NCBI RefSeq assembly: GCF_004010195.1
Contig: NC_057718.1
Span: 80,789,187 to 80,811,901, forward strand
Reading direction: 5' to 3'
DNA from: Chiloscyllium plagiosum
Taxonomy: Eukaryota
Length of the DNA stretch: 22,715 bases
Shown: piece after piece, positions 10,927-11,321 of the stretch
Position numbering within the stretch: position 1 is the first letter of the stretch
How the letters are laid out: every line of letters begins with the position of its first letter
The notes under the pieces: model-generated
Told to the model about the DNA's origin: nothing
The model's input: only the letters and a program-made list of their open reading frames with translations
Database searches by the model: none
Position numbers and translations under genes: made by a program

Positions 10927-11029
10927 TTGAGATATTTGGGTGATACCAATAGCTGTGATACAGATGCTGCAGCAGTAGGGAAACCCCAGTCATTGAGGTT
11001 TTCTTGGCACTGGAACTTGATCTAGGCTG
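10927..11029. repeat. Perfect 103-bp inverted duplicate of 11988-12090
   Basis: Base-by-base reverse-complement comparison gives 103/103 identity. Confidence 0.95.
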
Positions 11030-11210
11030 CCACGAGTGTGGGAAGGTCTTCAGCAATTCCTTCGCCCTGCTGAGGCACCAGCGAATCCACAAGGGGGAGA
11101 GGCCACTCTCCTGCCCCGAGTGCGGGAAGGCCTTCAGTGATTCCTCCCACCTGCTGACCCACCGGCGGGTCCACACAGGGGAGAGGCCCTTCAGTAACAG
11201 CAGTGTGTAA
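11028..11210 (+). pseudogene. Captured C2H2 (Kruppel-type) zinc-finger gene fragment, two fingers
   Basis: [60 protein letters not shown]. Two canonical C-x2-C-x12-H-x3-H fingers with TGERP-type linkers. No ATG (the listed ORF starts at TTG 11004 inside the inverted copy). Confidence 0.9.
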
Positions 11211-11294
11211 CATCCCCTTCCACCCCCACCGATGCTCAGTAACAGCAGTGTGTACCATCCCCTCCCTCCTCCCCCCACCGACCCTCAGTAACAG
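11191..11294. repeat. Minisatellite, about 45-49-bp unit, about 2.2 copies
   Basis: tcagtaacag starts at 11191, 11236 and 11285. The first two are followed by cagtgtgta(a/c)catcccct...cccccaccga. Confidence 0.85.
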
Positions 11295-11321
11295 ACCCAC
11301 TCCTACCCTATCCTTGTAATC
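11292..11321. repeat. Perfect 30-bp direct duplicate of 12174-12203 (part of the neighbouring HE1-type SINE)
   Basis: cagacccactcctaccctatccttgtaatc is identical at both positions. Confidence 0.92.

Follow-up and report, generated by a model that had tools for sequence, protein, structure and literature searches.

A recent 395-base insertion in a decayed LINE of Chiloscyllium plagiosum, composed of two local copies and a piece of a distant zinc-finger region

We wondered how a block of 395 bases (10927-11321) came to lie inside a dead retrotransposon of Chiloscyllium plagiosum when its parts belong to quite different sequences. The window, by which we mean the whole stretch of 22,715 nucleotides that was analysed, is rich in repeats, which resemble those of sharks, and without any N. 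The block is a patch in which copies of two nearby stretches are joined to a piece of a distant, multi-copy zinc-finger region.

Make-up and setting of the block

Piece A (10927-11029, minus strand) is an exact inverted copy of 11988-12090 (103/103 bases, as given by a repeat finder and an exact-extension script), and piece C (11292-11321, plus strand) is an exact direct copy of 12174-12203 (30/30 bases). A first-pass annotation of the window had claimed both copies, and their extents were confirmed on recomputation; about 4e-10 chance pairs of 30-mers are expected in the window. Between the two lie a pair of C2H2 zinc fingers (piece B1, 11026-11194, plus strand; the fingers are encoded by 11028-11195, Pfam PF00096, E 1e-15), the first 4 bases of which are common with piece A, and a minisatellite with a period of 45 bp and 2.2 units according to TRF (piece B2, 11191-11294, plus strand), whose unit has 3 bases in common with the start of piece C. 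Tract lengths are therefore 103, ~165-269 and 30 bases, and GC content is 65% in the zinc-finger piece versus 43% in the flanks. Self-BLAST of 11030-11291 returned no further copy elsewhere in the window, which bears out the earlier statement that the zinc-finger and minisatellite sequence is absent from the rest of it.

Neither a poly(A) tail nor a long target-site duplication accompanies the block, as had been reported. Its longest A run is 3 and its longest T run 4 bases, AATAAA is absent from both strands, no long repeat flanks it, any duplication is of at most 2 bases, and the insert holds no splice joint. Rfam gave 0 matches over the window. The block shows no sign of a function and reads as a scar.

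The host is a decayed LINE, which we take to be RTE-like. Its part downstream of the break forms the left flank (9006-10927, minus strand), delimited by tblastn of relatives in minus-strand frames and by contigs of non-carriers, which match up to 10927. The endonuclease part of the same copy forms the right flank (11322-11978, minus strand; tblastn matches at 11369-11939, upstream end approximate). HMMER found 341 relatives of the LINE linker peptide, of which 150 were listed; an endonuclease domain (Exo_endo_phos) was present in five of the six long relatives that were scanned, and a reverse transcriptase domain (RVT_1) likewise in five of six. A word-indexed search with the linker peptide matched 0 of 260 candidates, and Pfam assigned no family to any of the four decayed LINE peptides. 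The LINE is colinear across the block, both flanks being matched by 20 of the 148 endonuclease/reverse transcriptase relatives with tblastn matches. A Trp stands 22 residues (66 bases) before a conserved motif in 24 of the 28 relatives that hold this motif. The same interval measures 460 bases in the window, a net gain of 394-395. Together with the colinear relatives, this gain indicates that the block is an insertion that cost about 0-1 target base and that it is not part of the LINE family. The annotation's view that next to no target bases were lost agrees with this anchor spacing.

Other repeats of the window were observed alongside. At 3268-3502 a common repeat is folded back on itself, with 92-base arms (3312-3403 and 3408-3499) that are 93% complementary and 4 bases apart, and it is bracketed by a 12-base direct repeat (3268-3279 and 3491-3502); this is an insertion that duplicated its target and carries one end inverted, presumably as in Penelope-type elements. 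Other, non-palindromic copies of this repeat lie at 9028-9148, 18756-18880 (reverse), 22311-22431 and 22558-22678. A young CR1-like reverse transcriptase fragment with an open frame of 247 residues occupies 15497-16603 on the minus strand, and an older copy, 68% alike, is found at 8454-8974. At 16826-17400 a T-rich run is followed by what may be the 3' end of another minus-strand LINE, with a poly(A) tail. The degraded coding-like sequence at 19050-20700, which contains perfect short tandem repeats (19176-19219 and 19312-19349), may be a decayed Myb-like gene of a DNA transposon.

Carriers, non-carriers and age

We compared 4 of 24 listed sequencing runs over 10500-12400. X1, X2 and X5 come from the same species (organism A) and X9 from a related species (organism B). 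The data are Logan contigs, which are non-branching paths of a simplified k=31 graph, and the view obtained covers 32 of 29,882 pieces and 15 of 136 joints.

By these contigs, no sign of the insert was seen over 10500-12400 in X2, X5 or X9. Their left-flank contigs continue past 10927 with 27, 22 and 26 other letters, respectively, and depth in X9 is zero at 10948-11011. Only X1 has a contig that terminates altogether at 10927, as well as a place, at 12061-12090, where two contigs meet. They are both of the forks that a simulation gave for the left joint in a full/empty heterozygote; a homozygote would break at 10956 instead. X1 also carries the window's letter at 11725, where X2, X5 and X9 differ, and departs from the window at 11640. 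At 12072, depth in X1 only is 48.8 versus 27.5 from two listed contigs, some 21 units extra, which we did not count as evidence.

Could the block be a product of the library or the assembly (a chimeric molecule or an error in gap filling), or did it arise somatically in the tissue that was sequenced? Both copies are perfectly identical to their templates, as such an origin would have it, and no contig spanning any insert joint was found among the 32 of 29,882 pieces and 15 of 136 joints listed. The direct empty-site joint is likewise not among these 15 joints. Moreover, a carrier should show four forks, and X1 lacks two of them (11988-12017 and 12174-12203), its contigs running through both positions; thin links to high-depth repeats would tend to be removed by graph simplification. 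X1 may itself be the animal from which the window came and hence add no independent population evidence. Against this stand the left-joint forks, which fall precisely on the predicted bases and are confined to X1, with a crude chance of ~4e-5. Logan is described as removing words seen once and simplifying the graph (10.1101/2024.07.30.605881), so a single chimeric read should leave no forks. Nor would a chimera be expected to reach a distant locus and return within one base of its departure. An artefactual or somatic origin is thus distinctly unlikely in our view, and we regard the allele as very probably real.

The insertion is recent. The two copies show 0 differences from their templates over 133 bases, compared with 34 over 1472 between the window and organism B in the listed pieces; were the insert as old as the species split, 0/133 would have a P of 0.045, which on its own bounds the age weakly. 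This identity, taken together with two conspecific samples that give no sign of the insert, makes the event recent. Piece A has the window's letters at each of the 5 sites where the template of organism B has a substitution, and it keeps the window's state too with respect to a 4-base insertion that organism B holds inside the template. The youth assigned to the patch by the first-pass annotation therefore stands. Among the three conspecific samples, two give no sign of the insert and one, perhaps the source animal, shows the forks of the left joint; the insertion is probably polymorphic in the species. The event likely arose in the germline, and the patch may be heritable.

Some joints seen in the runs concern the LINE family. 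Those linking 10895 to 11337 and 10849 to 11576, present in all four runs, probably belong to other LINE copies, the letters between being unread, and we did not count them as evidence. A further joint, from 11993 to 12286, skips 292 bases in all four runs, again with the intervening letters unread. From this skip it seems that the SINE-like element (~12100-12290) is missing from other LINE copies, i.e. that the SINE inserted into the 5' region of this LINE.

Templates, distant donor and joints

The template of piece A (11988-12090, plus strand) lies close upstream of the LINE reading frame and 667-769 bases to the right of the break, and that of piece C (12174-12203, plus strand) 853-882 bases to the right, inside the SINE-like element. 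Both are intact. The SINE-like element is of very high copy number, with a family depth above 100,000 in bins 12164-12291. Since unbroken single-copy contigs cross both templates in X2, X5 and X9, both donor words are single-copy. At 12196 the local letter is T, against C in about nine tenths of the family depth, and piece C has this T. The donors of A and C are thus the local copies. The two local copies thus have opposite orientations and templates on one side of the break, within 0.9 kb, which ties them to the processing of that end.

The zinc-finger piece is present in runs without the insert. A contig of X2 equals 11026-11147 with 0 differences at a depth of 99 (4.8-6.9 for single-copy pieces), one of X9 equals 11026-11136 with 1 difference at a depth of 178 (8.8-14 for single-copy), and one of X5 matches 11033-11136 at a depth of 82 (8.5-28 for single-copy). 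Since X2 and X9 have these donor contigs at a depth some 15-fold that of single-copy pieces, the donor is a conserved family of roughly 15 near-identical copies, depth being a rough measure. Among its ~15 copies, and likewise from organism A to organism B (0 and 1 difference), this family hardly varies, against a divergence of 2.3% in the flanking unique DNA; the donor is a homogenised or constrained array. A literature search on shark zinc-finger arrays found nothing useful.

Whether the fingers and the minisatellite came from one donor can be approached through their border. In the 120 zinc-finger proteins listed (of 1210 matches, ranked by array length), 1192 of 1199 linkers continue to Cys; the window reads Asn at this place. 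Of the loose ends at 11192/11194, the 6 listed all lead on to one more finger, their contigs being paralogues. Because linkers go on to Cys and loose ends enter a further finger, a template switch at 11191-11194 is suggested. Either the fingers and the minisatellite derive from one donor, or the minisatellite marks a further switch. The minisatellite core matches a very high-copy repeat, and beyond the loose ends of this repeat (11226 and 11259) comes unrelated sequence that is not in tandem. In organism B (X9) the unit occurs head to tail, with a joint from 11276 to 11191. We take the core repeat to be close to the 3' coding part of a CR1-type LINE, and the minisatellite at 11226-11259 resembles a satellite born from a LINE fragment.

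The copy number of this material raises the alternative that the block moves or recurs as a unit, or belongs natively to the host LINE family. Its zinc-finger piece is multi-copy, its minisatellite is high-copy, and the LINE relative P0237 bears C-terminal C2H2 fingers. However, A and C are single-copy words in non-carriers, depth in X9 falls to zero within piece A (10948-11011), and the relatives are colinear without the block. The fingers are antisense in the endonuclease-reverse transcriptase linker and match P0237 at 35%, compared with 40 of 56 identical residues in the best match among the 120 proteins listed, a Kruppel-type array protein; the two best of the 120 bear a shark label, and the donor itself is not among these 120 of 1210. 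Neither of two findings that the first-pass annotation had named as contrary to its account was thus made, namely copies of the composite at many loci or its native presence in other RTE copies. This alternative is largely refuted and hardly credible.

The inner joints show overlaps of 3-4 bases. Piece A and the zinc-finger donor overlap by 4 bases (11026-11029; chance 0.016), as the donor contigs in X2 and X9 begin their match at 11026. A microhomology at the start of the fingers had been foreseen, and it is there; its size, given as TG or CTG, had to be corrected. The proposed CAG overlap between minisatellite and piece C (3 bases, 11292-11294; chance 0.051) holds in so far as it can be deduced from the repeat unit. 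The outer joints have about 1 base each (chance 0.44).

At the left joint, TTG had been proposed as the shared sequence, together with an exact empty site. Graph simulation of that empty site gives non-carriers matching up to 10929, and simulation of an empty site without loss gives matches up to 10927. The left-flank contigs stop matching at 10927 in all four runs. The left overlap is consequently 1 base and not TTG, and the exact empty site fails on the same mismatch. If nothing was lost, the insert is flanked by a 2-base duplication, with 1 base common at each outer joint. The originally proposed empty site alone retains the ancestral frame length of 66 bases; so the frame had already lost 1 base before the event, or else the break itself cost or changed one base. 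Both outer joints also have near-overlaps shifted by one base, which we discounted, as they easily arise by chance. Folding gave no strong hairpin at the break or the template ends (-2 to -7.4 kcal/mol).

Repair mechanism and known systems

We lean towards a recent complex templated insertion of the MMBIR/template-switch plus end-joining kind, in which templates were switched serially from a broken end and the break was closed by end joining. A chromosome break would have occurred recently inside the dead LINE copy, and the nascent strand would have switched templates several times on overlaps of 3-4 bases. The most economical order appears to be piece C, distant array, piece A, left end. The 3' strand of the right end would start by copying C, which needs the top strand at 853-882, and would then jump to the minisatellite/zinc-finger array. 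A fold-back onto its own resected tail would next copy A, for which the bottom strand at 667-769 is required; the left end would be joined last and almost bluntly, at a loss of 0-1 target base. This order would fit if resection stopped between 12091 and 12173. It would also agree with the hybrid model, in which one end primes and changes templates before NHEJ closes the break.

At least two copied pieces lie in one insertion while their donors are intact, i.e. copies were gained, and we infer that the patch was synthesised rather than ligated. The exact local copies and the multi-copy contigs of the distant donor support the serial switches that the first-pass annotation had proposed, with two local donors and a non-local one. 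In human cells, insertions with several donors make up 8.7% of events and have up to 6 donors, which include the acceptor locus itself and sites within 1 kb of breaks, with closure by NHEJ (10.1101/2022.09.30.509517). The outer overlaps of ~1 base are weak for microhomology priming.

These outer joints bear on the main rival, the capture of fragments. Here, pieces from resection of the right end (A and C) and a piece of a damaged array would be joined to each other beforehand and ligated into the break by NHEJ, the donor tracts being restored by fill-in. Outer joints of ~1 base next to inner joints of 3-4 bases are what captured, pre-joined fragments show in yeast, where complex insertions are described with outer joints of 0-4 bases (median 2) and inner joints of 2-11 (median 6) (10.1101/2024.03.07.583931). 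The same study describes inserted DNA mostly of 50-300 bp, often from repetitive fragile regions and with intact donors (10.1101/2024.03.07.583931), and the minisatellite in our block is G-rich on one strand (the minus strand, with G runs). On the other hand, a single break must bring together three or four free fragments, the inner overlaps here are at the short end of the yeast range, and the yeast events stem from nuclease or RPA mutants or from stationary cells. We consider this origin unlikely.

A patch made by reverse transcriptase is a further option. As in endonuclease-independent retrotransposition, or class 2 TSIPs as their authors propose them, a LINE enzyme would have primed at the break and jumped between RNAs. 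The block is without target duplication or tail and has short overlaps, in line with the definition of class 2 TSIPs (PMC5110952), and the zinc-finger piece and piece A are both sense on a single strand of the insert. However, the one locus that yielded A and C did so from opposite strands, so that transcripts of both strands would be needed. A splice joint and a tail are absent, and the position of two donors no more than 0.9 kb from the break suggests that DNA at the break was copied. This makes the involvement of RNA very unlikely.

Under serial template switching, the patch belongs to a known kind of scar from the repair of chromosome breaks, clean but ordinary. It is one allele in a dead retrotransposon and brings no functional change. 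Its value is that of a well-resolved natural example, the empty state apparently surviving in the species and the local donors known to the base: hardly any target sequence need be lost when a multi-donor patch reaches 0.9 kb locally and takes in a distant repeat array. It may serve as a population marker, and a survey of such scars across the genome could start from it. A literature search on templated insertions in sharks returned titles on human rearrangements or repair and, at that level, no such survey; one on template-site distances in human deletions found nothing. As a long shot, the zinc-finger/minisatellite array might be fragile and serve time and again as a donor, so that germ-line breaks throughout this genome receive finger-coding fragments from it, and the pattern of strand versus distance among local templates might record the resection tract (~0.77-0.85 kb) of a natural germ-line break. 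If this were true, the genome-wide set of scars would be a readout of germ-line repair in a cartilaginous fish.

How does the block compare with known systems? With polymerase-theta TINS it shares direct and inverted local copies, repeated rounds and overlaps of 1-4 bases. The equation with polymerase-theta end joining that had been made earlier nevertheless goes too far, since the templates lie 667-882 bases away, the tracts measure 30-103 bases or more and one donor is distant, all beyond the canonical range. Insertions by this enzyme are typically templated within ~30 bp and rarely exceed 10 bp per round, and a distant donor accounts for less than 0.1% of repair (PMC7165422); template distances are given elsewhere as peaking within 20 bp (PMC11541566). 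A role of polymerase theta at single joints is possible. From target-primed retrotransposition of LINEs (class 1 TSIP, transduction) the block differs in having neither a target duplication nor a 3' tail.

Class 2 TSIPs resemble it in their piece from a distant region, the absence of a target duplication of >=5 bp and of poly(A), and their end-joining-like joints (PMC5110952). Unlike them, the block is composite and includes two local donors; its distant donor exists in multiple copies, a class which the TSIP screen excluded by its demand for a single unique donor (PMC5110952). Also, an RNA intermediate is proposed for class 2 TSIPs, whereas an RNA route is not favoured for the block. Complex templated insertions induced in cells are similar in their several donors, local and distant, their pieces of 30-170 bases and their short overlaps, as well as in intact donors, little target loss and a repetitive, GC-rich distant donor. 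In contrast to those, the block is natural and apparently segregates in an animal population.
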